DNA of 64,000 bases from Candidatus Moraniibacteriota bacterium (GCA_049297495.1 JBAQUL010000026.1:64620-128619), one strand, 5' to 3'. Shown: positions 10,520 to 38,164, counted from the first letter of the stretch. The notes: generated from the sequence alone by a model not told the origin. Numbers and translations: made by a program.

Positions 10520-11160
10520 TTATTTATAGGGATTTATAACCAATGGCTGACTCCAATCAAACGAGGTCGTGTTTTTGGAAAGCTGGATTGAAACACCATC
10601 CCCAGGATTGACAGAGAAATCCGTTCCCATCCATTGATGGGTAAAAGTATCATAGTAGTAGGACAAGATGTTTTGCGTATCTGGTCGCCATCGAGTAATG
10701 GAAGATATCTTGGCATTGTTTCCATCACCTATCCCGCCCTCCATATCCCGAACCATATCGGACGCTTTTTGATATTTAGTAGTATAGGGAAGAGAGGTCC
10801 AGTTAATATTTGCCTTGGTGATATTCGTTGTAAATGTCTTGGCATTTTGCACGTCACTTCCAGCAATTGTCCAGTTAAAATTAGCTATATTTTTTGATAA
10901 CTGAACAGATATGCCGTCCCCGGGATTCACAGTGAAATCTGTTCCCATCCAATGATGGGTGAATGTATCATAGTAATAGGACAAAATATTTTGTGTATCT
11001 GGTCGCCAACGAGTGATTGAGGATACCTTGGCATTATTTCCATTACCAATCCCCCCTTCCATATCAGCTATTATGTCGGAAGCTTTCTGATATTTCGTAG
11101 CATATGGAAGCGAGGTCCAATTAATATTAGCTTTAGTTGTGTTCGTATTAAAATTCTTCT
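10520..11160 (-). repeat. Tandem duplication (about 321-bp period, about 88% identity) encoding two about 95-aa C-terminal repeats (ANINWTSLPY..KYQKASD..GGIGNGNNAK..RWRPDTQNILSYYYDTFTH.WMGTDF) of the giant protein
   Basis: The DNA repeat was seen directly by comparing 10620-10700 with 10940-11020, and the protein-level duplication by reading the repeats. Confidence 0.7.
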
Positions 11161-14100
11161 TAAGCGATACCGCCATAGTAGAATAGCCGCTTTCTCCAAT
11201 TGAATTTTCCGCACGAAGGATGTAGTAATAGACATTATTCGACAAATCGCTCTGAATTTCAGCCCAGGGAACAGTGTATTCAACTTGCAAACCATCAATT
11301 TCGGCCATTTTCACCCAACTAGTCGCGTCATCAGCTCCATCTTGCATCAGACCACTCAGCTCGCAAAATGGAGTAGTAGCTCCCGGATCACCATAGCGAT
11401 GACCAAATTTAATCTGACTGATACTACAAGGATCCTCAAAAAGTCCGGAGAATTTATTTTGAGTACGATAGAGATTATACTTGGTCGCCCCTAGAGAAAC
11501 ATCCCAGTTAAATTCCAAATTATAAGTTTCGGCAGCAGGCGGAACAGATGTCAGAATTTTTTCAATTTGAAAATTTTTCGGTGCCAGAGCAGGATTATTT
11601 TGCATTACAATATCGCGATGATTATCTTCCGCCAATGTATTATTGCTTGCGTCATAAACTTTGGTATAGAGAAAATATTTCTTATCCGCCACTAATCCAT
11701 TAGTTATGATTGAACCGCTATATTTTCCCGTGCCAATCTTGGTTAGCCCGGAAAGATTCTTAATATATTGGTCGCCAGGAACATCATTACCATTATTATC
11801 TTTCCAAACAACAACCAAATTTTCAGGATCAGCGAATACCCCATTTTGTTTTGTTTCGACCGTAAAATTAAGATTATTCCCAATAGTTAGTGTATCAGCG
11901 CTATAATCAACATTATCAACCCAGCCAGAAACTGGGATATCAATTATTGATTCTCCAGTTACTCCCGTGGCAACATCTATAGCAGAAACTTCCAATGTAT
12001 AATTTCCAGCACTCAAAGCGATCCCTTCGATAGGATTAATATTATAGCTATAGCTCGAAACATTCAAAACTGCTTGCGTGGCCAGAACAGCACCAGATGG
12101 ATCTTTCCATGTAATGCTAACATCAACTAATTTTGCTGCGCCTGTTACCTCATCAATTAATGACAGATCAAAATTCACTCTGCCATAATAATAACCTGTG
12201 TCATCCTTACTGAAAATCACCGGACTATCTTGATAATAATGACCATTATTATTTATCTCCAGATGGGTATTGACATTGATTTTAATCGAGCGAACAATGA
12301 CAGGCAGACTATCATTTGCAATATTTAAATCATCTACGCCACCATCCCAGTCACTCACAGAAATAACCTCCGCTCCAGCTTCACTGTCTTTATAGTAAAC
12401 AACGATGAAGCTCAGGTTTTCCGGAATACTGAATAGTCCATCTTCGATCCAAGGACCGTTCGGATTTAGAGAATATTTTGCAGAATTCGATCCAGAAGAA
12501 AGTCGAATTGGATAACCACCCAGACCAGCATTAGTATTTCTATCATCCGCATCAAACATCCTGATTGTCATTGGCTTTGAAGCGATGTTTTTATTTACCA
12601 CAAGTGGCGAATCAGTATCAGTGAACTTTATTTTATTAACAGGTCCGGCCGTATTGGAAATGACTGTAATATCCTCTTGAACACCGGAAATACTTGCTCC
12701 ATCAGTAACACCTACCCACTTCTCCCCCGCATGCAAAAAGGACACGCCATTTCCAAAAGTATGCAGCCCACTATCAGTCGCAGGAATGAAAGTATAATCA
12801 AGCGGCAATGCTGCATCAAGATCGGAAGAGGCAAAATGAATCGTCCCGGAATATGAGCTAATCACATAATCCTCGGCGTCCTGCGCCATAACCACAACCG
12901 AACTTGGCTCACCCTGAATCTGAGGGTCAGAAATATTAGTCACAAGAAAATGATCCATTACCTGCGCTGCTATCACTTCAGTCTGGACAGCATTTGTGAG
13001 GCCCGTATCAGGAATTGGAGGAAGATTGTCAGAAGCCGTAAGCGTAGGCTCTCCCACTGAAAAATCATGATAGTAAAAATTTGTCGCATCTTGTCCAGCC
13101 AGCATCGTTACATAACTCGCACCCCAAGAACCGCCTACGCTTGCAAGAAATTCACTTTGGTTAGATGATGATCGCAAATATATTCGCTGATCAGTGGTAA
13201 CAGAAGTAGGATTACCATATGCATTTCTCGCTTGAACCTGCATCGGTTCCGAGGGGTGTCTGGTAACTATCGTCTGTGGTGCTGTGACAAATACCAATTG
13301 GGTGATTACTCCAGCACCGACACTAACCGTCCCCGTGGCATTAGTCCATAGGGTGTCCGGTGCTGACACATCCGTATCTGAAGCAGTAACAAGGGGTGTC
13401 CCAGAATTAGAGTCGCGATAATATACTTGGATACTATTTTGACCACCAGGAATGACTACTGATGTGATTCCCCAAGGACCCGAGGGCAAAAGAGCGAAAC
13501 TTCCACCGGCAGAAGAAGAAAAAAGATAGACTATCGCATCACCAAGTACTGGCGCATCCACCGAAAAAGTATTCTGAGTCTTTATGGTGATCGGATCAGA
13601 AATCCCACCAGCAATCACCGCACCCAAATTTTGGTCAAAAATTAACTTAGCAACATTGCCTGCTCGTACAGAAAAAGTTTGCACGGCGTTTAGAAGTCCT
13701 ACGTCAGGATTATCCAGGGGCGTCTGATCGGAAACAGTGATCACGGGACCTCCTATAGTTTCATCTTGATAGTAAAAATTAGCCACAGAAGACCCGGCAG
13801 AAATTATTGACTGACTGATAATATTTCCATCAGAAAAATTAGTACTAGCTGAAAATTTTCCCGTGCCAGAAGTGCTGTTCAAATAGACTGGCAAATCAGA
13901 CGCCGAAACGACTATATTTCCAAAAGCATCACGCACTCCAAATGTGATTTCCGAGGACACTTCTCCCGCCGAGAGATCTTGTGCTGAGGTCAAATAAACA
14001 AGATTGGAAACCGCAGATGGCAAAACAGAAAAACTCTGACTAGTATTCACTATCCCACTATCCGGACTTTCTGGCGGAGTAGACACCTCTGAAAAACTGA

Positions 14101-17100
14101 CTGTAACATTTCCAGAAATAGTATTCCTATAGTATAGTGTTTTTTGAGAACTGCCGGCTGATAATGAAAAATGATTAATGAGGTCTCCCGAATTGAAAGT
14201 TTGACTCAGAGAGAATTTGCCACTGCCATCAGAAGAGGAAAGATAGATCTCAAGAGGACTATCTGGGGCTACTTCGACTCCATATTGATTTTGAATTCTC
14301 AGATCAAATGTCTTATAATTTCCTGCAATCAGTGAGGAATTACCATTGACTAACTGCATCCTCGCCGGACTACCCGGGGCGATCATTTGCACTTGTGCGG
14401 CATTGACAACTCCCAGATCAATAGGATTATCAAGAGTTGATTGATCACTAGCTGTTACAGTTGGCATACCACTTTTCGTATCTTTATAGTAAAATATTGT
14501 CCCGCCACTACCCGCAACGACTGAGATTGAAGTTATCGTTCCAGAAAAACCCGAGTTCTGACTGAAACTACCCTCACTCGACGAAGAATACAGATAGAGC
14601 TCGATTGGTTGCGCAAGTATTTTCGCATTTCCAAATTCATCCCTGAAGCCAAGTGACATCACACTGGAGGCTTGCCCTGCCACGAGCGTCTGACCAGAAG
14701 ACAGAAACACCATACTTGCCAAATCGCCTGCTGACACAACATAGTTTTGTGTTGCGGCTACCAAGCCACTGTTTGGAAACTCATCAGCTGTAAGTGCAAA
14801 TGTTCCGGTTGAAGTATCTTTGTAGTAGAAAAATGCATCATTGGATCCGCTCGGCAAGGTCAGACTCGCAATATCCGCCCAGGCGCCCCCATTTTGCAAG
14901 GAAAACTTTCCAGCAGTGGAAGTTGTTGCAAGGCTTATCGCAAGATCACTTACGGCATTTGAAACGTTATTATAACTATCTCGAAGTTGGATTCGCATTT
15001 GATCGGAAATAAGACCCGCCATTTTTGTTTGTGGCGCATTCATAAAAACAACCTTCGCCGGACTGCCAGCAGTAACTGTTAATTGCTGCGCATCACCGAT
15101 CACATTATTCGCATTTGCACCCAAAGAATATGTACCAGCAATTCTGTTTGTATAATACACGGTAGCGACGCTTGATCCAATTGGCACAATCACTTGATTG
15201 ATTGCTTCAGCATTCTCTTGGGCAGCTATTTTGAAGGCGCTCAAGCCTAAAGGACTAGATGTTAGATTAATGCTAACTGGCACTCCAATAATTGCTGGGC
15301 TACCATCACTTTTTTCCAGCTCAATCGTTATCACCGTGCTATAGCTACCAGCCGAAATTGCTTGTTCACCAGATGTAATTTTCAATTTATTGGGCGTATC
15401 ACCAATGACATCGATTGAAGCGACTGCATTTATAATATCCAAATCTGGATTATCGAGCAGCGCATAATCAGACACGGTAACATTTTTTGTTCCTGGCATT
15501 TGATCTTGATAATAAAAGCTCGCCGTACTCGTCCCAGCTAAGATTGTTACTGTGGATAAATTCCATGGTCCGCTTGAATTAGTCGCGAAACTACCCTGAA
15601 CAGGGCTATAAAGATAGACGGTTTTGTCACTATCGACAAGTACTGCATTACCATATTGATCTTGAGCTTGAACCGTGAAAACATTTGAAGCAGTTCCGAC
15701 TGCAACGGAAGTTGGCTTAGCAATCAAATTCAATTTTTGCACCGCGCCCGCTCCAAATGTTATTTCTTTCGTGCCAGCAATCCAACCTTCCGAAATATTT
15801 TCGTCTACTGTAAGCATTACAGTGCCAGCCGTCGTATCTTTAAAATAGACAGTTTTTGTATATTGTTTTGCTGGAATAGTTACCTGAGTGATGGAATTCC
15901 AAGGAGAACTACTCAAAGAAAATTGACCAGTACTACCAGATTTTGTCAAGTCAAAAATCGTATCACTATTCACTGAAACAGGCAGGCTGGAATTGGTTTG
16001 AGTTTGAATTGTCACCGCTATCGCGTTCCCCACCTGCGAAGCATTAACACTACTCATAATGATTTTTTCAATTGAACCGTTAATCAAGTTTTCTTGCTGA
16101 GAATTAGAAGTAAACTCGGAAGCACTGATGGTAATGATTGGGCTATTAACAATTGCATCTCGATAATAGAAGCTTTTCAAACTTTCTCCAACCAAAAGGG
16201 AAATATCTAAGTCATTCGTCCAATCACTCAAACCATCCAAAGAAAACTCTCCCGTCAAACTATTAGAAACTATATTGGCAGTCATATCAGCCGAGGCATT
16301 AACTCTTATGTCGTTACTATCAGTCAAATAAAAGCTAACTGAACTCGATGGAGTATTTAGTACAATCGTCTGGGGTGCAGACTGGAAGAAAAATTTAGCC
16401 GCGACGCCAGCATTAATTGTTTCTTGCTGAGAAGTTTCTATTATTCCGCCACTTGTCACAGTAATGGTTGGCGTACCGACATTCCAATCTTTATAGTAGA
16501 AAGTAGCGGTACTCTGGCCATTTGCTAACACATAGCTGCTAACTGATGACCATGGAGAAGGCGCACTAGAAAATTGCGCGTGCGTGCTATCCGAACTTAA
16601 TCCAAGCGTTACATTGCCAACTGCTCCGGTCGGGTTATCATACTGATCCCGAAGCTGAACAGTCAATTGTCCTGAATCTAGCGCAAGAATTGTCTGAGAG
16701 TTGCTCGTGAAAGTCAGATGATGCGCAGATCCACCAGCTACAGTAATATCTTGGTTAGCTCCGACGATACCACTCGCAGTTACGGAAATATTTTTCGTTC
16801 CAGCTAACGTATCGCGATAATAAAAATTAACCGCTGAAACACCAGGATTTGCATTAACACTAGCAATATTCCATGGACCTTCTGAAAATGCTGCAAATCC
16901 CCCACTCAAGGCTTCTGTCGAAGCCAGATTGATGACTAAAGAATTATCTAGTAATTTAACATTTCCGTATTGGTCTCGGAATTGAAGGATGAAGGCTGAA
17001 GTAGGATTACCAGCTGAGACGGAAAAAGGATTATTTGCAAAAATCATCTGATACGCACTACTCGCAGAAATATTAAATGAGTAAGTTCCAGACACTATGC

Positions 17101-20100
17101 CATTTTTCGCCGCCGTAATTGTCGGCGACCCAGAGGCAGTATCCTTGTAATAAAAAGTAGTGCTACTTTGACCACTAGCAATAACCACCTGATTGGTTTC
17201 AAACAGGCCGTTATTCTCTGTGTCAAATTTCCCTCCTCCGGAAATAGAGCTCAAGTTAACCGTTGTATCAGCTGTCACTGGAACAAGCTGATCATAATTA
17301 TTGAGCGCTGTCAAAGACAAAGCTCCTGATGGCGATCCAGCGGTAAGAACATTTGACGCACAACTCAAAGCGAATTTTTTTACGACGCCATAAATTATGC
17401 TCTCGTTTTGCGTCGCATTCAAAAGCCCCTGATCAGGAGAATCGGGATATGCAAAATCAGAAATGGTGATTTGCGGATTACCAATTGCAGTATCTTTATA
17501 GTAAAACTCCGCGTTATTCGATCCACTGTTAATCGCAACGGTTGATATCACTTGATCAGCTGCATCAAGAAATACTCCTGTCGCAGACGATGAATGGAGA
17601 TAGAGCGTAGTGTCTGCGCTGACGTTTTGAATATTGCCAAAAGCATCTTGCGTCTCAATCACCATCACTGCACTTTTTTGACCAAGCTCTAATGTTTGCG
17701 CTTCAGTATTCATACTTAGCTTATTAAGCGCTCCAGCTGCAACGTTAAAAGCAAGTGTTCCAGAAGTTTTTCCCGCGGACGCTGCCGTCACTAAAGGAGA
17801 ACCAATTGCTGTATCTTTATAGTAAAAACTGACCGATGATTGATCTTGCAAAATCGTAGCAGAATTTATACTGCCATCAAATACTCCGGAAGAATTAGTA
17901 TCAAATCTTCCAGTCGATGATGCCGAAGATAAATTAACGACCAAATCACTTGACACCGGAACATTGATATTATTAACATTATAGCTTTTGACCGTAACTA
18001 ATGGCGAAACTACGCCAGCCGACAAACTCACATCTGCCGCTTCCAATGTTAGTTTCGTTATCGCCCCCCAATTAATTGTTTCAGTTTGTGTGACATTTTC
18101 CAATCCTTGATCTGGAGAATCGGGATAAGCATAGTCAGAAAAAGTAAGCACGGGACTACCAGCCACATCATCCTTGCAATAAACCGTTGCGCTACTTGTT
18201 CCTGCCAATATTACTACCTGAGTAATCGTGTCGCCAGTTGCATCCAAAAATATTCCTGTTGCTGAGCTAGAATGAAGATGGATAGTTTTATCCGCAACGA
18301 CATTTTGCATATTATTATAGCCATCTTGGGTACGGATATTCACAGCCGCACTCTTTTGTCCTGCTGATAAGGTCTGAGGCGCAGAAGCTATGGCCAGCCT
18401 ACTAGCCGCTCCAGCCGCTACACTCAAAGCTAGTGTTCCAGCTGTTTTTCCTGCGGCTGAAACGGTAAGCACTGGAGATCCAGCTACATTGTCTTTGTAA
18501 TAAATTATTGCGGCAGATTGGTTTTGTAATATTGTAACAGAAGTGATTGACCCATCAAATACTCCAGAACTGCTAATATCAAACTTGCCCGCAGTTGAAG
18601 AAGAGAGACTAGCAGTCAAATCCGAAGAGGTTGGGATATTGATATTTGACGAATTATACACCTTAACATTAACCACTCCAGAAGATGTTCCCGCGACTAA
18701 ATTACTATCACTTATGTCTAATGCTAATTTTGTCACGTTACCATAATTAATATTGGCAATTTGCGTTGCATTCAAAAGTCCCTGATCAGGAGAGTCTGGA
18801 TAGGAATAATCTGAAACAGTGATTTGTGGAGTGCCAATTGTCACATCCTTATAGTAAAGGGTGCTATTACTTGTTCCGGAACTAATTACTATTTCAGTAA
18901 CAACATTTCCAATGGAATCAAAGAATGTTCCAGAAAGAGAGCTAGCATATAAATATATACTAGTGTCACTCGCCAACTTTCTTGAATTGCCATATTGATC
19001 TTGCGTTTCAATGTTAATCGCAGCACTTTTTTGACCAACTTCAAGTGTTTGCGCTGAGCTTATGATAACAATTTTATTCGCGTCACCTCCTAGGATATCA
19101 AATGTCTTCGTTGCAGCAGTTATCCCGCCAGAAGCCGCCGTCACAACAGGCGATCCAACTTTTGTATCTTTATAGTAAAAATCCGCTGATAATTGTCCAG
19201 CTGGAATCGTGACGCTTGTCACACTTCCGTCATATGCACCAGCATTACTAGTATCAAATTTTCCAGTTTCACTAGCGCTAGTTGATAAGTTAACGGTTAA
19301 ATCAGTTGGAGCTGGAATATTTACATCATTGGAATTATATGATTTAACCGTGATTACCGCTGAAGACGCACCAGCAACTAAATTAGTATTATCAACATTT
19401 AACATTAACTTAGAAATACTACCTGGGACGAGCGATTCGTTTTGCGCTGCATCAGAAATTCCCACTCCCCCATCCGGACTAGTATTATTGTCCGAAGCAG
19501 TAATGGAAGCCGACGCAGCATAATTCGATTGCTTGAAATAAAAATTTGCCGTGGATTGACTGTTAGGAATAATAACACTGGAAATAGTGGTTAAAAATGA
19601 ACTACTGCTTGAAAATATTCCACCAGAAGTGGCATACAAATAGACTATTGTATCTTCAACAACCTGAGCCGGATTATTATATTGATCTTGGGCTTGAATT
19701 GAAATCTGCGGAGAAGCTGCTCCTAGTACTGATTCGAAAGCAGCAGTAGCAAAAACGTATTTTGCCACCGCTCCGCCACTAATCGTCAAATCTTTATTGT
19801 CGTCAGTAAGACCAGCAGCACCATTGGCCGGATAAGCATCGGAAAGAATAATATTATCCACACCAGCAACTTGATTTTTGTAATAGATTGTAACTGAAGA
19901 TTGCCCGGCTGGAATAATAACTGAAAAGGAATTTACCCAATCATCCACATTATTGTAGGCAGAAAATTTTCCTGTGGGAGAATTGGTTGTCAAATATATT
20001 CTCTCATTACTGAGTGTTGTAACGATATTGCCATAAATATCTTCGAGAGAAGCAGTTATTGGATCGGAAATATTCCCCGCGGAGACATTTTGACTTGCCA

Positions 20101-25843: not shown

Positions 25844-25948
25844 TTTTATTTTACCTTAGCTCTCCCTCACCTTTCCTCTCTGCCCTATTAGCTTAAATCC
25901 AGCTCCGCAAAAAGCAGAAAAAATTCATTACAAAGTGGCCTGCTAAGA

Positions 25949-26629
25949 CTATTTTAGCCGATCTAATCCTGCCTTGGCGGCTTGATTTTCCGGCTGCATA
26001 TCCAGCACTTTTTGGAAATTCTTCTTGGCGCCATCTTTGTCACCAGAACCTTCATAGAGAATGCCCAAAAGAACATAAGCGTCGGCACTATCGGGGTTTT
26101 GACTAATTGCCTCTTGATAAACCTTTACCGCTTCATCCTTTTTGTCCAATGAATATTGATACATATTTCCAAGATTAATGTAGCTCGTCATTACTTTTGG
26201 ATCAAGACTGATCGCTTCTTTATATTCCTTAATCGCTTCTTCGTAATTTCCTTGATCTCGAAGCGCATTGGCCAAATTATTATGCGCCACGGCATTATTA
26301 CCATCCACCTTTATTTGCTTTCGATATGTCATCTCCGCTCCAGCCACATCACCTGTGGCATATTGCGCCACAGCATAGCCTTGCAAATCATTTGGATTAT
26401 TATTTTCTGCCTTATTTTTCAATTCAGGTAAGCTATTTTTATACTGCTCAACCAATGATCCGGCGCCATTGGTCTTCTTATTGTCAATATTTTTCTTGGC
26501 CGAAAACTTTGCCACGATTGCACTCCTTTTTGCGTATCCACCAATAAGCCCGGTCAATATGACAACGGCGAGTACCAGTAAAATTATTTTTCTCTTTCTT
26601 GAAGCTGGTTCCACATTTCTATCTTCCAT
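25949..26629 (-). CDS. Membrane-anchored tetratricopeptide-repeat (TPR) protein
   Basis: An N-terminal TM helix (ILLVLAVVILTGLIGGYA) followed by at least four TPR units (e.g. AHNNLANALRDQGNYEEAIKEYKEAISLDP). Confidence 0.75.
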   Translation of the reverse strand: MEDRNVEPASRKRKIILLVLAVVILTGLIGGYAKRSAIVAKFSAKKNIDNKKTNGAGSLVEQYKNSLPELKNKAENNNPNDLQGYAVAQYATGDVAGAEMTYRKQIKVDGNNAVAHNNLANALRDQGNYEEAIKEYKEAISLDPKVMTSYINLGNMYQYSLDKKDEAVKVYQEAISQNPDSADAYVLLGILYEGSGDKDGAKKNFQKVLDMQPENQAAKAGLDRLK

Positions 26630-26704
26630 ATTATATTTTACTAAATTTAATTTTAATTAGACCTCAGGTTATCTTAACACTATATCAATCTATGCGCAAA
26701 GAAA

Positions 26705-29700
26705 TTATTTCGAAGAAAATAACCGTAGAAGCTTTTTCAATAAATCGCTGCCATCCTTAACTTGAAAATTGACTGGTGCACTCTTTTCATCTTCGCCAAC
26801 TACTTTCGCTGAAAGAAAATTATCACTACTTCCCAATTTTTCACCAAAGATCATCATTTTCCAATTGCCCTGCTTATCGCTTGTTGTAGAGCCAATTTCT
26901 TGACCATCACGCCGAGAAACTACGACTGTCCGATGGGGCATAGCCGTTCCCGACACAGTGACTCCCGCATCAGTATCCATCACTAATGAGCCATCCCGTG
27001 GTGAAAGAATGGTTGGTACTGATGATCCGGAGACAGTAATTGTAGCAGCCTGATTATTCACATCTACCTGTTTACTTTGCGGACTGGCATAATAGAAATT
27101 ATTTATTATAATCGTATAATTATTATTAGCAACATTTTTATTGGTAATATTATGATCACCTTCATTTGTGGTATTGTTTTCTGTTACCGTACTAGAAGAA
27201 TTGCTAGTTGCTGCCGGGCTAGCGGAGACTACGTCGGGCTTGATATAAATTGATTGCAAGCCAGACAAGGCTTCTGTGCTTGAAGCTGTTATGGTCATAA
27301 GACCGGAAGCCGAATCTTGATAGTAAAGGTTAGCACAACTAGAGCCGGAAGAAATGGTAATGGAAGTTTTGTCCCAAGGACCAGCAAAATTTGTCGCAAA
27401 TTTACCCGTCGCCGAATTAGCGGCCAGGCTTATCGCCTTATTACTATCAGCTGATACATTGTTGCCTTCGACATTTTGGAGGCAAACAGTAATCGTGCCA
27501 CTAGCAATATTTTTTGCCACTTCTTGCGTCAAGGTCGTAAAGACTAGTCTTGTTCCCGTGAATCCACCGCCACCAGCATTAGTGACATATAGCACAGTAG
27601 ACGCTAGCCCTGGAACGCTTGCCGTTACAGTTTCTAGGGAATCCGATGAGCCCAATGTCCAGCTCACCGAAGCAAGCCCCGTCTCTCCAACAATGACTGA
27701 CACGGGACTAACAGATCCAGAGCCACTGGCTGGAGTGAACATAACGGTTTTGCCACTCGCCGGATTGCCACTACTATCAATTACTTTCGCGACTAAAGGT
27801 TGAGGCAATGTAGTCGAAGGACTTCCTGTCTGATTATTACCAGAGACATAGGTCAAAACAAATGACTCAGCATAACTAACAACAATATTATTTGACGTCC
27901 CTGAAATAGTACTGTCAGTGGCGATGATTTGAGTTATTTCCGCCTTCACTAGTGTAGTATCCAATTGAGTACTTGCCACACCACCGACAAATGTTACCCC
28001 GGCGGTATACACAGGATGCGTACCAGAATCACTGTCGTCCGGACCAGAATAGCTAATTGTTTTTGAGCCACTATAGTCCGTTGCCACATTGCCATACAAA
28101 TCAAGCGCTCGAAGAGACGCAATAATAAATGGTAAATTGACAATCGCTGTTGCTGGCGCCATTATATTAAATTGATTTGTATCAGCGGGCTTCACAACTA
28201 TCGACAAAGAATCACCACTTAGTCCACCACTACTAACGGTTAGTGTCACAGTTTCCGCCTTGTATAGAGTCGTGCTGACAGCATTATTTTGTCCATCACT
28301 AAAATCAACGGATGAGGAATATACTGGAGCAGTGCCACTCGGACTTGCATGTGGACCACTATAACTAACGACCTTTGTGCCATTATACGCTGTCACCACA
28401 TTTCCAAATGCATCGATTGCTTTGATGGTAATTGCAAAAGGTACTCCGGCAATCACCTCGGAGGGCGCAGTTACATCTAGCAATGTCGGCACAGAAGGCA
28501 CTCCATCTGCATAAAAAACAATCGGCGTTCCAAAAAGTCCCGCAACTCGTGCCTCACCCTGATTAAGTCCTGCTCCTGACATCGAACCCAACCTCCAAAC
28601 AGTTTGCGCCCTACCATCAACATCAGTGACAGCAGAACCCGGTGCCATTGATCCATCCCCAATTGTCACAGCGAATGTGACGGCCTGTCCACTTTTAGGA
28701 TTTCCATAAACATCTTTCACTAAAACTACCAAAGGATTGGCCAAATTAGAATTGACGATACCAATCTGATTATTACCAGAATAATATTCAATTGATCCAG
28801 CTGCGCCAGCTTGAACAGCAATATCATTACTGTCTCCACTAATTGCGCCTTCTGTAATATGGATTGTTGCCGTCTCAGTTCTAAAAAGTTCGGTCATGAG
28901 TGCCGTCGTTGAAACGCCATTAACAAATTCAACTGCGGTTGTGTAGCTAGGACTATCTCCCAGAGCACTCGCAGACGGTCCGGAATAAACAATAGTCTTG
29001 TCACCCGAATATCCCGTGGCGACATTACCATACTGATCTTGCGCTGTAATTGAGGTAAGACTGAAACTAACTCCAGCCGTTACTGTTGCTGGAGAAACTA
29101 AATGCAAATGCGTAGCCGTTCCCGCAGAAACAACAACATTTCCCGACTGACCGGAAATCGAGCCTTGAGTAAGCGTAATCTTGACTGTTTCCGCCCTGAC
29201 AAGCACAATCGGCGCTATGCTTGAAGCCACGCCAGACGTAAAAATTGCTGTTACGGAACTAGTTGGCGCACCAGATTCTGGCCCGCTCGCAGGACCGGTT
29301 AGTATCAAGGTTTTACTGCCATCATATCCCAAAGCCACATTGCCATATTGATCCTTAGCTGTAATTTGCGTATTAGAAAAACCCACGCCAGTCGTAGCAG
29401 TCGCCGGAGCCGAAACATCAAAAGTTCGAGCGCTACCAGCCTCGACAGTAATCGTTCCGGTAACATCAGTCATACCACTGCCAGCATCAAAATGAATCAC
29501 TCCTGATTGTGGAGTCATATGTGGTGAAAAACTTATCGTACTAGCATTATTCACATCAATCTGCGCAAAACTATCCCCACTGTCAAAACCGGTCACAGTC
29601 CAATGTCCCGTTGTCGCATTATTCACAAAATTTCCCGAAACGTCATAGCCTGCCATCCAAAGATTCAAAGGAGCATCAACATTTATTGTGACATTAGAAA

Positions 29701-31957
29701 TCTCAGCTCCCCCTGCGCCTAATGCATTATTAATTCTCACACTATTTGTCGCGCCAGCTTGAATCGTTGTGCTAGCATTACCAACTTTTCCATTATCACT
29801 AGTAGCTGTCAGAGTATAAGTCCCAATAAGCCCCGTGTATTTTAATTTTCCAGCTAGATTTGCAGTTCCACCAACAAAATCACTAGAAAGATCCAGCACT
29901 GGTGTGCCGCTGTCCTGAACTGTCATAATTCCGCTGCCACTCACTGAAAATAGCACCCCTTGACCAACGGTCGATGCATCATAATCGATAACCACATTGC
30001 CATACACATCTTGAGCAGTCACATTAGCAGTGACAAAATAAGTATCATTGATTTGAGGAGAATTTATGCTCATTCCAAATTTAGCAAAAACACCAGGACC
30101 AAAACTAACTGCATCACTCAATGAATTTGCCGATCCACTAACTGCCCTAAATTGCCGACTGCCAGACAGCCCTCCATATTTTAACTTGCCAGATAAATCA
30201 CAAACACCATTTGTAAAATTACCGACTTGATTGAGGACATTATTATTTCCCGATCCCAGCCCACTTACTATTCCCGCCGCAACCGATTCGGTGATAGTCA
30301 CATTATGCACCGAAGCGTCAAAGTCAGTGACAACATTTCCGTCAGCGTCCTTGACCGTTAAAGTATCCACCCCTGAAAAAGCAGCGTCCATAACTTGAGG
30401 AGAAGTCAATGAGAAATCAAACGAAGCATAATCACCCGCCGAAATATTCACCACTCCGCTTGTTGTGGTTTTTGCATCAGCAGATGTGGCTGTAAAATTA
30501 TAGTTTCCGATAATTCCAGAAAAAATTAGTTTTGCTGTTAAGTTTGCAACACCATTAGAAAAATCGGCATCAAGATTGAGCTTATTCACGCCAGACAATC
30601 CACTGACAGCTCCATTGGCTGGAGCAACGGTGAACGTCACATTATTAGTCGCTGCCTGAAAATCAGTTTTAACGTTTCCAAATGCATCATAAGCAGTGAG
30701 CGTATTGGTTCCAGTAAAAGTTTTTCGATTCTGCTGAGTTGCTGCTAAGGTCAAATTTAAACTGCCAAAAACACCAGGACCAACTGCCACCACTTGAGTT
30801 CCGTCTGTAAGCGCGGGCGAAACTGGTGCAGTCTGGTGAGCGGTCATCATCCAGGTGGGAGAGGATATTTTTTCGTCATAATAGCAAAATTGAACCGATG
30901 AATTGCCAGTTGCCACAACAAATTCAGTAATTTCCGTACTAGTACAAACACCGCCAGAAACACTATAGAATTTCTTATTGACCCCACTAGAATCTGATGA
31001 AAGCGCCACAGTCGTATCAGCCTTCACCGCTTGAACATTTCCCGCCACGTCACGAGTTTCCACTGTGATTACTGCAGATTTATTGCCTGCCGCTATAGTT
31101 CTTTGCGGCGAAGAAAAAACTAAACGAGTTGGATCGCTTGAAGCATTTGCCACAGCTGACGACGGACCTTGCGCACTAGATTCAAAGTAGTTGGGCGTAT
31201 GCACTGTCCAAGTAAAAAGCACTGACAACTTATATGTATAACTATGACCAGATTGCACTGTCGTGTCCGCGTAAGTCACAGCTCCACCGGCATTTTGTGT
31301 CGCAAGTGCTGCTAATTTTTGATAAGCGCCACTATTATCACTACGATAAACCCCATAACCAGTTATCGTATTATGTGCCGTTCCACCTGCCGCGCCAGTA
31401 TCGTTATTCCAAAGACCAGTCCACTGCAAGTCTACTGCCGCAACTGTCGCGCTAGTAATTGAAGGAGTGGGAATCGGTTCCATCACAATAGCGGATAAGC
31501 CATAATGCAGACCAGAATTCCAAATATCATCTTGAGTAATCTGCCTTTGCCCAGAAGCTCCAACCCAAGAAACTTCAGACCAACCATTAAGCCCACTATA
31601 TGTTTCCGCCACAGTCACCGCCGTATCACCAACTGTAATCGAAGGCGACCAAGAAGAGCTTCCCACGTCCCAATTGAAATAAGCCGCTATTCCAGCGCCA
31701 TCAGCCGGATAAATCTGATCAATATCTGGAGTATCAGAACGAGAAAAATTATTATTAATATTTAAACGATAACCGGTCACAACCGCCTTGCTATTCGGAC
31801 TATTAGCGTCTCCCGTAAGAAGACTTCCGCCACTCCGATAGGGCACATAACCGCGCAAAGAAAAAATATCCCCCGCTTTGGCGGGAGTTGCCCAAAAAAT
31901 AATCGAGAAAATGCTTAAAAAGAAAAAAGTTTTTTTTATTTTATTTTCGTATTTCAT
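26705..31957 (-). CDS. Large secreted protein (about 1750 aa) with tandem bacterial Ig-like (Big) repeats
   Basis: Signal peptide (MKYENKIKKTFFFLSIFSIIFWATPAKA). Repeated about 100-aa units (GVSFSLTSITAQDQYGNVATGYSGDKTIVYSGP...). A C-terminal Ig-like domain. The ORF-track start at 31972 overlaps the upstream gene by 4 bp. The ATG at 31957 gives a canonical signal peptide. Confidence 0.8.
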   Translation of the reverse strand: MKYENKIKKTFFFLSIFSIIFWATPAKAGDIFSLRGYVPYRSGGSLLTGDANSPNSKAVVTGYRLNINNNFSRSDTPDIDQIYPADGAGIAAYFNWDVGSSSWSPSITVGDTAVTVAETYSGLNGWSEVSWVGASGQRQITQDDIWNSGLHYGLSAIVMEPIPTPSITSATVAAVDLQWTGLWNNDTGAAGGTAHNTITGYGVYRSDNSGAYQKLAALATQNAGGAVTYADTTVQSGHSYTYKLSVLFTWTVHTPNYFESSAQGPSSAVANASSDPTRLVFSSPQRTIAAGNKSAVITVETRDVAGNVQAVKADTTVALSSDSSGVNKKFYSVSGGVCTSTEITEFVVATGNSSVQFCYYDEKISSPTWMMTAHQTAPVSPALTDGTQVVAVGPGVFGSLNLTLAATQQNRKTFTGTNTLTAYDAFGNVKTDFQAATNNVTFTVAPANGAVSGLSGVNKLNLDADFSNGVANLTAKLIFSGIIGNYNFTATSADAKTTTSGVVNISAGDYASFDFSLTSPQVMDAAFSGVDTLTVKDADGNVVTDFDASVHNVTITESVAAGIVSGLGSGNNNVLNQVGNFTNGVCDLSGKLKYGGLSGSRQFRAVSGSANSLSDAVSFGPGVFAKFGMSINSPQINDTYFVTANVTAQDVYGNVVIDYDASTVGQGVLFSVSGSGIMTVQDSGTPVLDLSSDFVGGTANLAGKLKYTGLIGTYTLTATSDNGKVGNASTTIQAGATNSVRINNALGAGGAEISNVTINVDAPLNLWMAGYDVSGNFVNNATTGHWTVTGFDSGDSFAQIDVNNASTISFSPHMTPQSGVIHFDAGSGMTDVTGTITVEAGSARTFDVSAPATATTGVGFSNTQITAKDQYGNVALGYDGSKTLILTGPASGPESGAPTSSVTAIFTSGVASSIAPIVLVRAETVKITLTQGSISGQSGNVVVSAGTATHLHLVSPATVTAGVSFSLTSITAQDQYGNVATGYSGDKTIVYSGPSASALGDSPSYTTAVEFVNGVSTTALMTELFRTETATIHITEGAISGDSNDIAVQAGAAGSIEYYSGNNQIGIVNSNLANPLVVLVKDVYGNPKSGQAVTFAVTIGDGSMAPGSAVTDVDGRAQTVWRLGSMSGAGLNQGEARVAGLFGTPIVFYADGVPSVPTLLDVTAPSEVIAGVPFAITIKAIDAFGNVVTAYNGTKVVSYSGPHASPSGTAPVYSSSVDFSDGQNNAVSTTLYKAETVTLTVSSGGLSGDSLSIVVKPADTNQFNIMAPATAIVNLPFIIASLRALDLYGNVATDYSGSKTISYSGPDDSDSGTHPVYTAGVTFVGGVASTQLDTTLVKAEITQIIATDSTISGTSNNIVVSYAESFVLTYVSGNNQTGSPSTTLPQPLVAKVIDSSGNPASGKTVMFTPASGSGSVSPVSVIVGETGLASVSWTLGSSDSLETVTASVPGLASTVLYVTNAGGGGFTGTRLVFTTLTQEVAKNIASGTITVCLQNVEGNNVSADSNKAISLAANSATGKFATNFAGPWDKTSITISSGSSCANLYYQDSASGLMTITASSTEALSGLQSIYIKPDVVSASPAATSNSSSTVTENNTTNEGDHNITNKNVANNNYTIIINNFYYASPQSKQVDVNNQAATITVSGSSVPTILSPRDGSLVMDTDAGVTVSGTAMPHRTVVVSRRDGQEIGSTTSDKQGNWKMMIFGEKLGSSDNFLSAKVVGEDEKSAPVNFQVKDGSDLLKKLLRLFSSK

Positions 31958-31968
31958 GCAATAAGTTA

Positions 31969-33114
31969 TCATTTTTTCCGCCTCATCTTCCCCACAATCT
32001 TTTCCCGCATATCTTCCACCTTCAAAGCGGCTTCATTGACTTCTTTGGATACATTAATAAGCTCCTCTTCTACACCATCAATATCTTTTTCCAATCCCTC
32101 TTCGGATGAAATCTCATCAAAATTTTTCTGTTTCCTTTTTTTATTTATTTCCAGGCGATCTCGTTTAAGATTTTCCACCTTCCGCATTGACGCATTCACC
32201 TCTTTCGCCACATCAATCAGCTCCTTTTCAACGTCTAATGCTTCTGAATTCAAATCAATTAAACTCTGATTTGTTGACGATTCTTCTTGCGGCGCATCAA
32301 CCTCCTTATAATCAATGATTCTTAGTGTTTGCTCGTTACCCGAATTATCACCCTTGAAAGAATTTTGATCAGAATAAAGATTATTTTTTTCCGCTGCAAC
32401 CCTGAAGGAAATTCTTCTTTTTCTCAAAAAGAAGAAATAGCCAAGCGCTATTGAGATGCCTATACCAAAAACAATGCTGAACCATACACTGCTAATCAGA
32501 TACCAATGACTTGCACCGTCAGAATCGACTATTGTAAAAAACACCCGATTACTTTGTATTGTTCCTAATTTGGCATCAGCAAATGAAGCTGTTGCCGAAT
32601 ATTCTCCCGGCACAAACTGAAATTGAGGGATAAAAACCCATTCACCATTCTTATCCGCTGTTGCATTGCCATTGAGCCTTGAACTCGATTGATGCTGATA
32701 AAATTTTCTATTAATATCTTCATCAGTCACAACCACATCAACAATCACTCCGGGAGAAGTTTTCCCAGAAAATTTCACGCCCGTATTGACCACAGCCTCC
32801 CTGGAGCGAGGGAACTCAAAACTAATCACTGACTTATCATTGTCTTTTATATTGACTTTCTCCTCATTCAACGTTGGATCGATAATGGACGGAGCAGTTG
32901 AAGCAGCATTATCCTCAACCGTATATTCATTATTAGTAACATTAACTTTCCCTTCCGAATCATTTTCTATGGCACTTTCGATAATACTTTTAACATCTTG
33001 TGGTGTCGCATCAATTGCCAAAACAGTTTTGGAATAAAATAAAAATCCCATCACGAATAGGATAGAAAGCAAATAGCCCAAATTTAAAACAAAAAATTTA
33101 ATTTTATATTTCAT
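31969..33114 (-). CDS. Type I membrane protein: signal peptide, Ig-like ectodomain, TM helix, cytoplasmic coiled-coil with internal repeat
   Basis: N-terminal signal/TM segment (FFVLNLGYLLSILFVMGFLFY). A second TM (WYLISSVWFSIVFGIGISIALGYFFFL). The C-terminal repeat (IDVAKEVNASMRKVENLK and INVSKEVNEAALKVEDMR) occurs twice. Confidence 0.6.
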   Translation of the reverse strand: MKYKIKFFVLNLGYLLSILFVMGFLFYSKTVLAIDATPQDVKSIIESAIENDSEGKVNVTNNEYTVEDNAASTAPSIIDPTLNEEKVNIKDNDKSVISFEFPRSREAVVNTGVKFSGKTSPGVIVDVVVTDEDINRKFYQHQSSSRLNGNATADKNGEWVFIPQFQFVPGEYSATASFADAKLGTIQSNRVFFTIVDSDGASHWYLISSVWFSIVFGIGISIALGYFFFLRKRRISFRVAAEKNNLYSDQNSFKGDNSGNEQTLRIIDYKEVDAPQEESSTNQSLIDLNSEALDVEKELIDVAKEVNASMRKVENLKRDRLEINKKRKQKNFDEISSEEGLEKDIDGVEEELINVSKEVNEAALKVEDMREKIVGKMRRKK

Positions 33115-33225
33115 AAAAAAACGAGGAATCGACACCTCGGGAAAGGTTGCTATTATTCGCAACTAGAGGATAACCTTTCCATCGCTAGTATCATATCAGG
33201 GAATCAGTAAATATGAAAGGCTGCA

Positions 33226-33266
33226 AATAAAAAACACTTCGACGTAAATTCGAAGTGTTTTTTTGA
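33226..33266. terminator. Bidirectional rho-independent terminator between the beta-helix gene and the next gene
   Basis: AAAAAA-ACACTTCG-ACGTAAAT-TCGAAGTGT-TTTTTTT. Confidence 0.65.
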
Positions 33267-33279
33267 TCTACCATGATTG

Positions 33280-36200
33280 CTAAAATATAAGATACGAAAT
33301 TGTGCCAGTCTTGGTCCCAGTTTTCAAATCAACCGCATACCAATTATACCAACCAGCTATTTTACGAATTTTGTAATCTACCAAGAAATTTCCACTAGCG
33401 TCCGTTTTAACCTGAACTGGGGCATAGTAGCCACCCCAAGCACCAGAAAAATAGAGCGCAACATCACTATTGGGAGAAAATTTCTCTCCTGATTGATGCA
33501 TAATTTCTCCCTTATGCCCTCTTTTGGGCAGGTTGAAAATTGAATACGGCGCAGGTTCAAACGTAACCTCTTTTTTGTAGGTATCGGAAGTATTGCCATT
33601 TTTATCTTTAAATTTGAAAAAGAATTGTTGTTCATCCCTTTCTTTCTGGCTAATTTTGAGTTCAATATCTTTTTCCATCTTATTCCAGTCCGCTTTTTCA
33701 AAATGAGAAAAATGCGATACCTTGTAGCGCTTGATACCTGAGATATTTTTAAACTTCAAAGTCACTTCCTTTTTTGATGTTTTTTCATGCTTAACATCCT
33801 TCTCGCTAAAAACAAGCTTAAGATCATCAAAATAATCCTCAGTGTCAGGAGCTGGCGTGGGAGTCGGAGTAGGAGTTGGCGACGTTGATATATTCACACT
33901 CACCACATAAGCTTTCGTCGAATTATCTTGCGCGGTAACCGTATATGTGACAGGCAAAGTAAAATCTCGTGCCACGCCCGAAGCAGGACTGACAGACGCA
34001 CCGCTGTGAATAATTGTGGGAACCAGCGCAGTCACATCAGTGCCAAAGGGAACCGTAATTGTGATAGTCTGAGCACCATTGTCTATTGTGCCATGCACAG
34101 CCGGATTAAGATTATCAAACGAAAAACTTGTAATATCCTTACTCGTTGGAGAAGGTGCACTAGCCACTGTCACAGTTATGACATACACCTGTGTCGAAGC
34201 ATCAGCCGCCGTAACAGTGTAGTTGACCGGATTGGTAAAGTTTTGCGCCACACCACTCGCGGGACTGACGGATGTTCCAGTAATCGTGATTGTCGGAACC
34301 AGCACAGTCACATCAGTGCCAACTGGCATGGTAAGCGAAATAGTACGCGCACTCTCGCTGATTGAGGTTGCACCAACTTGACCAGGCACAGTAAAGGCAG
34401 TAATCGCTTTCAGCGATGAAGGATTAGGCGCAACCGTCACGGTCACAACATAAGCCTGGGTTGAAGCATCCGCAGCAGTCACGAGATATGTCAATGGATC
34501 CGTGAAATCATTTGGTGTTGTACCGCTAATTTGAACAATTCCATTCACTGAAACTGAAGTGCCTGTAGCAGTAAAAGAAGCAACTAAAGCAGTAGTTGCA
34601 GTGCCGTGAGGCATGGTTAGTGCAATTGTATGTGCACTTTGATTAATTGTAGTTGATCCGATTTGGCTAGGAATAGTAAAAGTGGTAATTGATTTAGTTG
34701 AACTAACCAAACCTTGATATTCAAAAGCTCCCATATCCACCTGACCAACAATTGATTCTCCATCATAATCAGTCGTAAAAAGACTGGTCGATTCTCCGAC
34801 ATTTATACATGGCGAACTTCCCCCTAGATGATAGTCGTGGTTACCTCTATTTTTAAACAAAGGGTCTCCTGTGACAGAATGCGACCCCTCAGTAACATTA
34901 ACAAAGTTGGTTCCGTTACTGTGAACAGCATTATAGTCATTATCGATTGGCGTACTGGTATCATTCCAAAGAATCGTGTTAACAATTCCGTAGGAAGCAT
35001 TAAAAGCCACGATATTATTTCTCAACTTAATATTCTCTCCACTTCCTGCCTTAGCGATACCAACCACATTGTCCGCAACAACATTGTTATAGATATTCAA
35101 ATCATGCGGAGAATCAAGCCCGGGAGGATGGCTTTCGCTTGGACTTTTGTCATAATACGCACTGATACCTTCCGTATTGCCATAAACGATATTCTGATAC
35201 ACATCGATATCATATACGCCTTGAGTAAAAGCAATACCGGTAGAATTTGCCCCGTAATCACTACCTAATGGACTAAAGTTATGGATATCATCATGTCCAT
35301 AGATCGTATTTCTCCGCGCAATGCAATCATGCGATACAGTTGACCCCGTTCCACCGCCCCAGTCAAAATACAGTCCATTCCCCTCCCAGCGCGTATTAGT
35401 ATGATTATTGTAAATCGTATTGTCCTCCACAACCAAACCAACACAACCAGCAATCCAAACTCCACCGATTGGCGCCTTATATGAATTATCATGGACGCGA
35501 GAATTTTTAATCACACTCTTTGTTTGCCCACTGTCATCAATGTTCCCAAAAGAAATTCCGCCACCATCAACTTCATAAATATCCAAATTATCAATCGTCA
35601 CGCTGTGCCCCGTAATTCGATAATCTTCCGACGTCAAAAGAATTCCAGCGTTAATCTGACCAGTTCCCTTTAAATTATAAATCGAGCCATCTTTGATTGT
35701 GATATTATATGGCTTCCCAGTCACACCGCCCACGCCCCAATAAAAACTTATTCCATGATAAAAAGCATAGAGCGGATTAAAATCATGCAAGTTAAAGTTT
35801 TTAATTTCAATATTATAAACATCACTTGACCCAGTGTTATACCAAAAAATTCCGGAATAGTTCATTCCCGATATATCAATATTGCTGATCGAAATATCAT
35901 GTGGCCCATTCCAAAGACCGACTCCGCCATAGCTATCCATCAAAGTCACATCGGACATGTCAATATGATGCGCCAGATCTGAAAGACCGATGCAATAGGC
36001 GTTATTCGCAGTAAAGTTTCGAAAAGTAAGAGCAGTGATATTTAAATAACTTTTTCCTCCCGCATATATCCCAAAATTTTGCGTCCCGCCGCCATCAAGG
36101 ATTGGATCGCTACCACTGCCATAAGCACCAAAACTAATCGGGTTACCAGCCGCGCCAGAATTGGGAACTGTCAAGGTCTCTCCATTCCAAACGCTACCTT

Positions 36201-36411
36201 TTTTAAAAAGAATATTATCGCCAGCCAAAAAATTGGACGTGTTAATCTTTTCAATTGTTTTCCAGGGTTGAGTAGAGTCTGTTCCGACATTAGCGTCATC
36301 TCCTAGGGAAGAATCAACATAATAATTGGCAGCAAAGGCATTTTTTCCAAACAGAAAACAACTCAGAAATGCCGCTAAGATAATTAATTTATTTAATCTT
36401 ATTTTAAACAT
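33280..36411 (-). CDS. Secreted right-handed parallel beta-helix (pectate-lyase-fold) protein with three about 90-aa C-terminal repeats and a PT-linker
   Basis: Signal peptide (MFKIRLNKLIILAAFLSCFLFGKNAFA). N-terminal motif (NYYVDSSLGDDANVGTDSTQPWKTIEKIN). Many beta-helix rungs (NxxxG/NIxIxNN). Three repeats (TAFTVPGQVGATSISESARTISLTMPVGTDVT...). A PTPTPTPTPAPD linker. Confidence 0.75.
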   Translation of the reverse strand: MFKIRLNKLIILAAFLSCFLFGKNAFAANYYVDSSLGDDANVGTDSTQPWKTIEKINTSNFLAGDNILFKKGSVWNGETLTVPNSGAAGNPISFGAYGSGSDPILDGGGTQNFGIYAGGKSYLNITALTFRNFTANNAYCIGLSDLAHHIDMSDVTLMDSYGGVGLWNGPHDISISNIDISGMNYSGIFWYNTGSSDVYNIEIKNFNLHDFNPLYAFYHGISFYWGVGGVTGKPYNITIKDGSIYNLKGTGQINAGILLTSEDYRITGHSVTIDNLDIYEVDGGGISFGNIDDSGQTKSVIKNSRVHDNSYKAPIGGVWIAGCVGLVVEDNTIYNNHTNTRWEGNGLYFDWGGGTGSTVSHDCIARRNTIYGHDDIHNFSPLGSDYGANSTGIAFTQGVYDIDVYQNIVYGNTEGISAYYDKSPSESHPPGLDSPHDLNIYNNVVADNVVGIAKAGSGENIKLRNNIVAFNASYGIVNTILWNDTSTPIDNDYNAVHSNGTNFVNVTEGSHSVTGDPLFKNRGNHDYHLGGSSPCINVGESTSLFTTDYDGESIVGQVDMGAFEYQGLVSSTKSITTFTIPSQIGSTTINQSAHTIALTMPHGTATTALVASFTATGTSVSVNGIVQISGTTPNDFTDPLTYLVTAADASTQAYVVTVTVAPNPSSLKAITAFTVPGQVGATSISESARTISLTMPVGTDVTVLVPTITITGTSVSPASGVAQNFTNPVNYTVTAADASTQVYVITVTVASAPSPTSKDITSFSFDNLNPAVHGTIDNGAQTITITVPFGTDVTALVPTIIHSGASVSPASGVARDFTLPVTYTVTAQDNSTKAYVVSVNISTSPTPTPTPTPAPDTEDYFDDLKLVFSEKDVKHEKTSKKEVTLKFKNISGIKRYKVSHFSHFEKADWNKMEKDIELKISQKERDEQQFFFKFKDKNGNTSDTYKKEVTFEPAPYSIFNLPKRGHKGEIMHQSGEKFSPNSDVALYFSGAWGGYYAPVQVKTDASGNFLVDYKIRKIAGWYNWYAVDLKTGTKTGTISYLIF

Positions 36412-36574
36412 ACCAATATTCCCCTTATTTGAGCTATTTACTGCGCCGCTAAATGAAGTCAGCGACCAAAAAGCATAGCACAACTGCGAAATTTGTCAAG
36501 GGCGAAAGGCACATAAAAAGGCCCTTGAAATGAATAATTCCAAGGACCTCACTTTTCCAATACGTAACGGCACA

Positions 36575-38160: not shown

Positions 38161-38164
38161 TAAC

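Follow-up and report, generated by a model that had tools for sequence, protein, structure and literature searches.

A 64,000-nt stretch of DNA from a Candidatus Moraniibacteriota metagenome-assembled genome, referred to here as the window, carries on its minus strand a four-gene cassette (10506-33228) whose largest product is a protein of 5107 amino acids (aa). The organism, an uncultivated ultra-small bacterium, belongs to the Candidate Phyla Radiation (CPR, or Patescibacteria), the GC content of the window is 38-48%, and all positions given below are those of the window. We conclude with moderate confidence that the cassette encodes a Sec-exported fibre system, with an exchangeable lectin-type head and a base docked on partner proteins, that serves attachment to a host cell or to another surface. 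This conclusion draws on the modular architecture of the proteins, on export signals recognized heuristically, on the conservation of the gene set across genomes, on its presence or absence at one site among related strains, and on the divergence of the head. To our knowledge, the means by which ultra-small CPR bacteria recognize and hold their hosts are largely obscure outside a few cultivated Saccharibacteria.

A preliminary description, made from the sequence alone, had grouped five consecutive genes of this region into one cell-surface locus of about 27 kb filling over 40% of the window. ORF calling confirmed five co-oriented minus-strand open reading frames (ORFs) of the sizes and at the positions reported there, namely the four cassette genes and a neighbour encoding a 1067-aa beta-helix protein. 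Their span is 25,964 bp, thus closer to 26 kb, and makes up 40.6% of the window. The modules that had been named (LamG, TIG, Ig-like, beta-helix and TPR) agree with Pfam and PDB searches, and the prediction that the products are exported or membrane-bound is borne out by hydropathy and AXA-type motifs, which heuristically give each of the five proteins an N-terminal signal peptide or transmembrane (TM) segment. A role at the surface, in attachment, likewise still appears to be the best reading of these predicted features.

Architecture of the giant protein

The giant protein starts with a basic n-region and a 16-residue hydrophobic core followed by AYA/Q at aa 40-43, a heuristic call that corresponds to the secretion signal of fibrillar adhesins. 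In the N-terminal 1560 aa, Pfam detects 11 TIG stretches (E 2e-78), three Laminin_G_3 domains (E 2e-51) and a Gly_rich_2 domain at aa 487-736 (E 2e-19), and Pfam returned no match between aa ~2500 and 5107. The distance from the motif 'ITGTNF' to the motif 'VTFGG' is 11 aa in plain TIG domains and 226-285 aa in TIG 1, 3, 5 and 7. Because this spacing shows four domains interrupted by inserts, the 11 stretches correspond to seven TIG domains, and the putative binding modules thus sit in loops of a scaffold in which interrupted and plain TIG domains alternate. The three LamG modules together with the TIG domains are predicted to be of the ligand-binding domain type found in fibrillar adhesins. 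The protein as a whole is acidic, rich in Ser, Thr, Gly, Ala and Asn, and has a mass of ~520 kDa.

Behind this head follows a tandem Ig-like stalk, another feature of fibrillar adhesins, built of FYYKD repeats (~108 aa each, consensus ...FYYKD...G.P..T) and of two further Ig-like domains termed HF for their motif HF.S.D..A.LP.DYTF. The repeats had been noticed before and are real, and their number, put earlier at about 25, is 24 over aa 1555-4500, with 22-46% identity to a reference copy. AlphaFold2, run from the 24-copy alignment, models the repeat as a 7-strand beta-sandwich with a predicted local distance difference test score (pLDDT) of 91.9. A Foldseek search of the PDB with this model gave weak, generic Ig-like matches (best E 7e-3), including domains 4-6 of the S-layer protein SbsC (TMq 0.55, 22-23% identity), Ig domains of GH2 enzymes, and filamin, and the FYYKD profile found no credible homologue among PDB sequences and no match at the default cut-off (best E 0.0087, a camelid nanobody). 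At ~4 nm per Ig domain, the 26 domains of the stalk would reach ~100 nm when extended.

The order of the repeats is itself conserved. Window repeats 1-4 and 11-24 match best at the corresponding positions of 22-repeat homologues, while repeats 5-10 (17367-19195) are three copies of one two-repeat unit, spaced 675-678 nt apart with 63-76% nucleotide identity, and all map onto repeats 7/8 of those homologues. For this reason repeats 5-10 are the only sign of array expansion, and the positional orthology of the remainder implies that the array is old and has kept its length, in contrast to many adhesins, whose repeats are recent and nearly identical. A gene so repetitive at the protein level does invite the suspicion, raised in the preliminary description, that the 5107-aa ORF is chimeric, its internal repeats having been collapsed or misjoined during assembly. 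We put the chance of this close to nil, because DNA repeats inside the gene are all at most 80% identical, an orthologue colinear with it occupies the same site in GCA_037132035.1 (88% nucleotide identity over 10.8 kb), colinear homologues at 40% identity occur on a 1.1-Mb contig, and the gene is under purifying selection, with a ratio of nonsynonymous to synonymous substitution rates (dN/dS) of 0.06-0.15. The identical protein is also recorded under four NCBI accessions. An intact 15.3-kb ORF with such selection and such homologues is far beyond what chance would produce, and the giant is accordingly treated here as a genuine single protein.

The stalk ends in a conserved base that comprises a beta-rich region, an FN3 domain and a twin alpha/beta domain. 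Neither the FYYKD repeat nor the base matched a Pfam, NCBIfam or PDB sequence family, and Pfam scans relaxed to an E of 5 yielded nothing meaningful for the base, the HF domain, the N-terminal domain of the 1755-aa protein or the C-terminus of the 1067-aa protein. The earlier statement that the giant belongs to no recognized family thus stands with respect to these databases; it does not stand with respect to relatives, since at least 12 representatives (50% clustering) share the stalk and base in the layout R-HF-R(20-24)-HF-R-post-FN3-twin, always at the C-terminus. The heads of these proteins are diverse, with zero to four LamG and two to 11 TIG domains (some have TIG only), Gly-rich/ALK_LTK_GRD modules, or Kelch with DUF2341.

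The repeat is widespread. An exhaustive profile search recovered 7,994 representative proteins at E <= 1e-3 and 1,126 at E <= 1e-30, many of them 4,000-7,100 aa long with 20-50 copies; word-indexed homologue searches are nearly blind to the family (28, 3 and 4 matches), and it was the exhaustive search that revealed its spread. A few of the proteins come from outside the Patescibacteria. Examples, from a 716-kb contig (L002) and P0011, are a 'Myxococcales' PKD protein and a protein of 1174 aa encoded a few kb from Flp/Tad pilus genes.

A four-gene cassette conserved across genomes

Homologues of the 1755-aa protein led to two other patescibacterial genomes (loci L005 and L006, the latter on a 1.1-Mb contig), and homologues of the giant led to further loci. 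The four families, i.e., 397-like, 1755-like, TPR and giant, co-occur in seven other patescibacterial loci; all four are adjacent in L005, L006, L013, L014, L016 and L017, with identities of 23-47% and in shuffled order. The order in the window is 397, 1755, TPR, giant, and that in L005 and L006 is giant, 397-like, 1755-like, TPR. With protein lengths in aa, the order is giant 6281, 326, 1452, TPR in L016; 362, giant 5592, 1396, TPR in L013; 282, giant 6927, 1506, TPR in L017; and 278, TPR, giant 7116, 3135 in L014. Partial contigs (L003, L004, L015) hold part of the set; in L003 and L004 the end of a giant is followed either by a 1755-like gene or by a 397-like and then a 1755-like gene. That the neighbourhood is kept despite rearrangement argues for a functional linkage of the four genes.

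The genes in the window are five in a row, adjacent and co-oriented, all with products bearing export signals, and the preliminary description had treated them as one unit. A single five-gene surface apparatus that includes the 1067-aa beta-helix protein is nevertheless very improbable in our estimation. The 1067 gene has a strong terminator of its own (Table 1); sister strains keep it beside the AIRS gene and have none of the other four there; and it was not found beside the cassette in the examined flanks of L005, L006, L013, L014, L016 and L017. The conserved unit therefore has four genes.

Of the three partners of the giant, the 397-aa protein combines a signal peptide with a Big_13-like Ig ectodomain (E 1e-3), a TM segment at aa 228-246 followed by RKRR, and a charged cytoplasmic tail of ~150 aa; its layout is shared by homologues in L004, L005, L006, L013, L014, L016 and L017. 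The 226-aa TPR protein has a single N-terminal TM segment (aa 15-33) followed by matches to Pfam TPR families. Its homologues in six other loci (34-43% identity) have flanking charges that favour an N-in/C-out topology, and the TPR part probably lies outside the membrane. The name 'TPR anchor' given to it earlier had been a supposition, and the 397-aa type-I membrane protein appears to be the better candidate for a membrane anchor.

The 1755-aa protein may be viewed as a second, shorter fibre. Its signal peptide is followed by a conserved domain at the N-terminus (aa ~33-170) and then by an FN3-like region and Ig-like repeats, of which two are FYYKD-type copies and others are Big_1-like units, and the protein ends in a Big_6-like domain. 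Its Pfam matches are weak (Big_1 and Big_6, the former borderline at 35.7 bits against a cut-off of 34.9), and it has no match among PDB sequences. Invariant alignment columns are concentrated in aa 1-500 and 850-1025. L003-L006, L013, L014, L016 and L017 contain homologues at 35-47% identity, and a metagenome scan with the alignment returned L003 again and one 2.4-kb fragment, and nothing else.

Presence, absence and divergence among strains

Comparison with related genomes revealed, beside the recurrence of the four-gene set, sister strains that have no cassette at the corresponding site. Four sister contigs (L009-L012; 84-91% nucleotide identity) are colinear with the window from 43230 to 33229 and again from 10505 to 1; they lack 10506-33228, and the two flanks lie ~65 nt apart. 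Two further records for which there is no DNA have the same cassette-less gene order. Given that at least four sequenced sister contigs lack it at the syntenic position, the cassette is accessory, and the proposal that the locus defines the cell envelope of this bacterium has to be given up. The junctions showed neither a tRNA nor a repeat, which gives no support to a classical integrative element.

GCA_037132035.1 (L015) has an orthologue of the giant at this site, with the AIRS gene following it there too, and the flanks of L015 are at least as close to those of the cassette-less strains as to those of the window. In this comparison the synonymous divergence (dS) of the giant is 0.40-0.43 versus 0.49-0.60 for the flanks. 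Since the giant has a flank-like dS and L015 is equally near to strains without the cassette, ancestral presence followed by loss is likelier, and recent insertion was set aside.

Between the window and L015, the three parts of the giant have behaved differently. The base has 94.9% aa identity (dN/dS 0.056, dS 0.43) and the stalk 88.1% (dN/dS 0.153, dS 0.40), whereas the head segment has 55.6% (dN/dS 0.163) with a dS of ~2.4, a value that is saturated. The Gly-rich module also occupies a different position in the L015 head. The low identity and saturated dS of the head, set against a conserved base and stalk, indicate that the head has been replaced and has not simply evolved faster.

These data also bear on whether the cassette proteins are adhesins at all or instead structural components of the envelope, such as an S-layer-like coat or sheath, a possibility suggested by the weak matches of the repeat to SbsC and by the acidic, Ser/Thr-rich composition. 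We consider such a coat improbable: the cassette is missing in several sister strains, proteins of 5107 and 1750 aa laid out as beads on a string do not resemble the S-layer proteins that form lattices, Pfam and NCBIfam detected neither an SLH domain nor any other that binds the wall, and a variable head is better suited to ligand recognition. An SLH-anchored S-layer protein in particular was rejected for the giant on account of the missing SLH domain, of its mass (~520 kDa versus 40-200 kDa) and of fold matches to SbsC that are only weak.

Proposed function

Taken together, these observations suggest the following model for the attachment fibre. Sec would export the 5107-aa product as a long modular fibre, in whose distal N-terminal head the TIG domains would carry, inserted in their loops, lectin-like modules of the LamG/ConA type and one glycine-rich module. 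A 26-domain Ig-like stalk would carry the head and end in the conserved C-terminal base, which would most likely dock the fibre on the cell through the co-conserved 397, TPR and 1755 partners. The head would bind a ligand, most likely glycans, and would be exchanged between strains, so that the most likely function is attachment of the cell to a host or surface with strain-specific specificity.

Several points weigh against this model. The signal peptides were judged by eye and hydropathy only, and the LamG fold is also found in enzymes and in non-adhesive proteins. Searches of the giant with Pfam, NCBIfam, regular expressions and hydropathy found no LPXTG, SLH, CWB or RTX element, lipobox or C-terminal TM segment, and because no recognized anchor was found, retention at the surface is assumed. 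A fold search gave no identification of the twin C-terminal domain of the base, and the topology of the TPR protein of the window, clearer in its homologues, is ambiguous from charges alone.

A bolder version of the attachment model, which we regard as tentative and would not presently favour, is that the cassette specifies a Patescibacteria-wide, undescribed surface organelle. It would consist of a fibre of fixed length (26 Ig domains, ~100 nm or more), dedicated type-I membrane and TPR proteins that hold it, and a head swapped by recombination that sets the host or surface range of an episymbiont.

Whichever version applies, what had been a list of large CPR proteins becomes a defined recurrent unit with a conserved base, a conserved stalk length, three partners and a strain-variable head. 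The cassette thereby offers concrete candidates for determinants of host range, and its natural presence/absence polymorphism can be correlated with host or habitat in metagenomes. It also supplies new sequence families to model, namely the FYYKD repeat (for which there is no Pfam model), the HF domain, the base and the N-terminal domain of the 1755-aa protein. If the function turns out to be ordinary adhesion, the main gain will be better annotation.

Locus layout and neighbouring genes

The features of the locus are listed in Table 1. The terminator of the 1067-aa gene, which is kept in the sister strains, marks the upstream edge of the cassette; the downstream edge lies 15 nt beyond the stop codon of the giant gene, before a terminator-like hairpin in the conserved flank. 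Terminators thus bracket the unit. Within it, intergenic gaps are 75-105 nt, the 397 and 1755 genes nearly abut, and no strong hairpins were found between the genes, which probably form one transcription unit. No tRNA or Rfam family was found in the window. The PurM-like AIRS gene that follows the giant was considered as a member of the system and rejected: it is kept in cassette-less strains, lies past the terminator-like hairpin, and is not near the cassette elsewhere.

Table 1. Features of the cassette and of the adjoining genes (window positions).
Feature	Position	Strand	Description
Four-gene cassette, presence/absence segment	10506-33228	minus	22,723 bp
Giant fibre protein, ORF	10520-25843	minus	5107 aa; NCBI MFZ2189017.1 'IPT/TIG domain-containing protein'
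Giant, signal peptide	25718-25843	minus	aa 1-42, ...FFFAVAYA/QTS; heuristic (sequence, hydropathy)
Giant, head with 7 TIG domains	21182-25717	minus	aa 43-1554; Pfam and motif spacing
Head, LamG nested in TIG 1	24968-25606	minus
Head, Gly_rich_2 nested in TIG 3	23624-24448	minus
Head, LamG nested in TIG 5	22460-23110	minus
Head, LamG nested in TIG 7	21308-21952	minus
Giant, stalk	12344-21181	minus	aa 1555-4500; 24 FYYKD Ig-like repeats and two HF Ig-like domains
Stalk, first HF domain	20498-20842	minus	aa ~1668-1782
Stalk, second HF domain	12650-12982	minus	aa ~4288-4398
Giant, conserved base	10523-12343	minus	aa 4501-5107, last 607 aa
Base, beta-rich region	11579-12343	minus	~255 aa
Base, FN3 domain	11159-11578	minus	2 conserved Cys
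Base, twin alpha/beta domain	10523-11158	minus	two in tandem, ~105 aa
TPR protein, ORF	25949-26629	minus	226 aa; NCBI 'tetratricopeptide repeat protein'
Second fibre protein	26705-31957	minus	1750 aa from M6 (ORF to 31972 = 1755 aa); NCBI 'hypothetical'
Type-I membrane protein	31969-33114	minus	381 aa from M17 (ORF to 33162 = 397 aa); NCBI 'hypothetical'
Promoter-like site	33190-33217	minus	TTCATA-16-TATGAT with TG; in cassette DNA upstream of 397 gene; consensus match only
Intrinsic terminator of 1067-aa gene	33229-33263	minus	14-bp stem flanked by A and U runs; -16 kcal/mol, z -4.45
Beta-helix protein	33280-36411	minus	1043 aa from M25 (ORF to 36483 = 1067 aa); NCBI 'choice-of-anchor Q domain-containing protein'
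Terminator-like hairpin after giant gene	10425-10454	minus	conserved flank; -17.6 kcal/mol, z -2.56
AIR-synthase-related (PurM-like) ORF	9146-10381		after giant; NCBI 'AIR synthase-related protein'

The 1067-aa neighbour is composed of a signal peptide, a right-handed beta-helix, three DUF5018 Ig domains, a Pro/Thr linker and a C-terminal domain. Residues 51-279 match the beta-helices of GH136 lacto-N-biosidases in the PDB (5gqc, 7v6i and 6kqs; E 1e-6 to 3e-15), and the protein also matches the NCBIfam choice-of-anchor Q model. Against the NCBIfam GH136 equivalog it scores 43.5 bits versus a cut-off of 2500, with only aa 51-126 matched. It thus aligns with the N-terminal beta-helix part of LnbX (5gqc) and leaves the catalytic part uncovered, the remainder being choice-of-anchor Q and DUF5018 Ig domains, and the assignment as a GH136 lacto-N-biosidase was rejected because no full-length match with the catalytic region exists. 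In the cassette-less sisters, the gene adjoins the AIRS gene after its terminator and ~65 nt; L009, L011 and L012 carry an intact copy (1039-1063 aa). In L010 (5629-9811, versus 33229-37209 in the window), it is broken into three ORFs of 165, 131 and 345 aa and therefore looks pseudogene-like.

It could be argued that the fibres serve to capture nutrients, in which case they would bind polysaccharides or particles from the environment and act as a scaffold together with secreted beta-helix enzymes nearby that are active on glycans. Lectin-type LamG heads, an adjacent exported beta-helix protein with a GH136-like N-terminal part, and the genes for a GH28 polygalacturonase and a RicinB-type lectin in the same window would all be in keeping with this. 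We nonetheless think it unlikely, as the beta-helix gene is a separate transcription unit that persists without the cassette and, as noted above, has not been found beside it in the examined flanks of six other loci, and as Pfam and NCBIfam detect no catalytic or cohesin/dockerin-type module in the cassette proteins. Attachment to a host or surface therefore remains the preferred reading of the cassette.

Other features of the window lie outside the cassette. Upstream of the beta-helix gene is a small minus-strand ORF (36575-37036) with three predicted TM segments, conserved in sister strains, where it is called as a 143-aa gene, and a strong hairpin (36518-36550, z -4.08) separates the two. 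The RicinB-type lectin gene (37260-37706, minus strand, 148 aa, without a signal peptide) sits in a window-specific segment of ~1.06 kb (37210-38272) that is missing from L009-L012, where its flanks are contiguous. Next to this, a 1394-aa ORF (38510-42694) has no Pfam match, and the 1460-aa orthologue of the sisters is recorded with PF01075 (Glyco_transf_9). On the other side of the cassette, a 445-aa ORF without a Pfam match (7633-8970) is kept in L009-L012, and L015 has two short ORFs (66 and 54 aa) instead. A stretch in the middle of the GMP synthase gene (2859-4070) has 68% nucleotide identity to the sisters versus 84-91% in neighbouring DNA and may be a divergent allele or a recombination patch within a housekeeping gene. 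The window also encodes a fused PyrK-PyrD dihydroorotate dehydrogenase (50929-52692, 587 aa) and a stand-alone Peptidase_C39 domain protein (54378-54893, 171 aa).

Comparison with known systems

The closest known parallels are the fibrillar adhesins of monoderm bacteria, such as the 7651-aa adhesin of Mobiluncus mulieris with 51 Ig-like domains (PMC10619420) and staphylococcal Embp (PMC9302970). Like the giant, these have an N-terminal Sec signal, a distal binding region and a long tandem Ig stalk, and are by far the largest protein of a small genome. The giant differs in that it has no LPXTG/sortase or other recognized wall anchor, and in that its stalk repeats are not recent, near-identical copies but old, divergent (22-46% identity) and positionally conserved. 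The giant is further set apart by its three co-conserved partner genes and by binding modules nested in TIG domains. As predicted from its domains, it may work like a fibrillar adhesin, and lacking the corresponding anchor it is best filed under no named family.

The giant adhesins of type I secretion systems (T1SS) with RTX repeats, including MpIBP (PMC5550230), SiiE (PMC6272769) and the LapA-type proteins, similarly reach hundreds of kDa, with Ig-like extenders and ligand modules at one end. They are, however, exported C-terminus first and have RTX repeats and an N-terminal retention module, whereas the giant has an N-terminal Sec signal, contains no GGxGxD motif, and ends in FN3 and twin domains, not in a T1SS signal. 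No genes for ABC transporters, membrane fusion proteins (MFP) or outer-membrane export components were found among the window ORFs scanned. Intimin/invasin was likewise rejected, as no N-terminal barrel was found and the sole Big_1 match is the borderline one in the 1755-aa protein.

A large share of a small symbiont genome is likewise devoted to a cluster of very large extracellular proteins in Apilactobacillus kunkeei, whose 1.5-Mb genome carries Giant1-5, a run of five consecutive genes with extracellular products of 3,000-8,000 aa (PMC12863079). The present locus belongs to another phylum and has one giant, one 1750-aa fibre and two small membrane proteins.

Surface proteins that contain concanavalin/lectin, pectin-lyase and FN3 domains are reported to be typical of CPR genomes (PMC5220378), giant membrane proteins of 1392-4163 aa have been proposed to mediate host attachment in Vampirococcus lugosii (PMC8080830), and predicted surface adhesins are essential in a Saccharibacterium (PMC11665869). 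Giant predicted adhesins are therefore already known in these bacteria, and the cassette is not surprising in kind. In the literature searched, neither the FYYKD repeat nor the fixed stalk was found described, and the same holds for the conserved base and the four-gene cassette. Ultimately, the cassette shares with the CPR surface proteins reported previously the organism group, the domain repertoire and the proposed role in host recognition and attachment, and differs in that those reports list individual proteins (PMC8080830, PMC5220378), whereas a fixed stalk, a base and a cassette are defined here.

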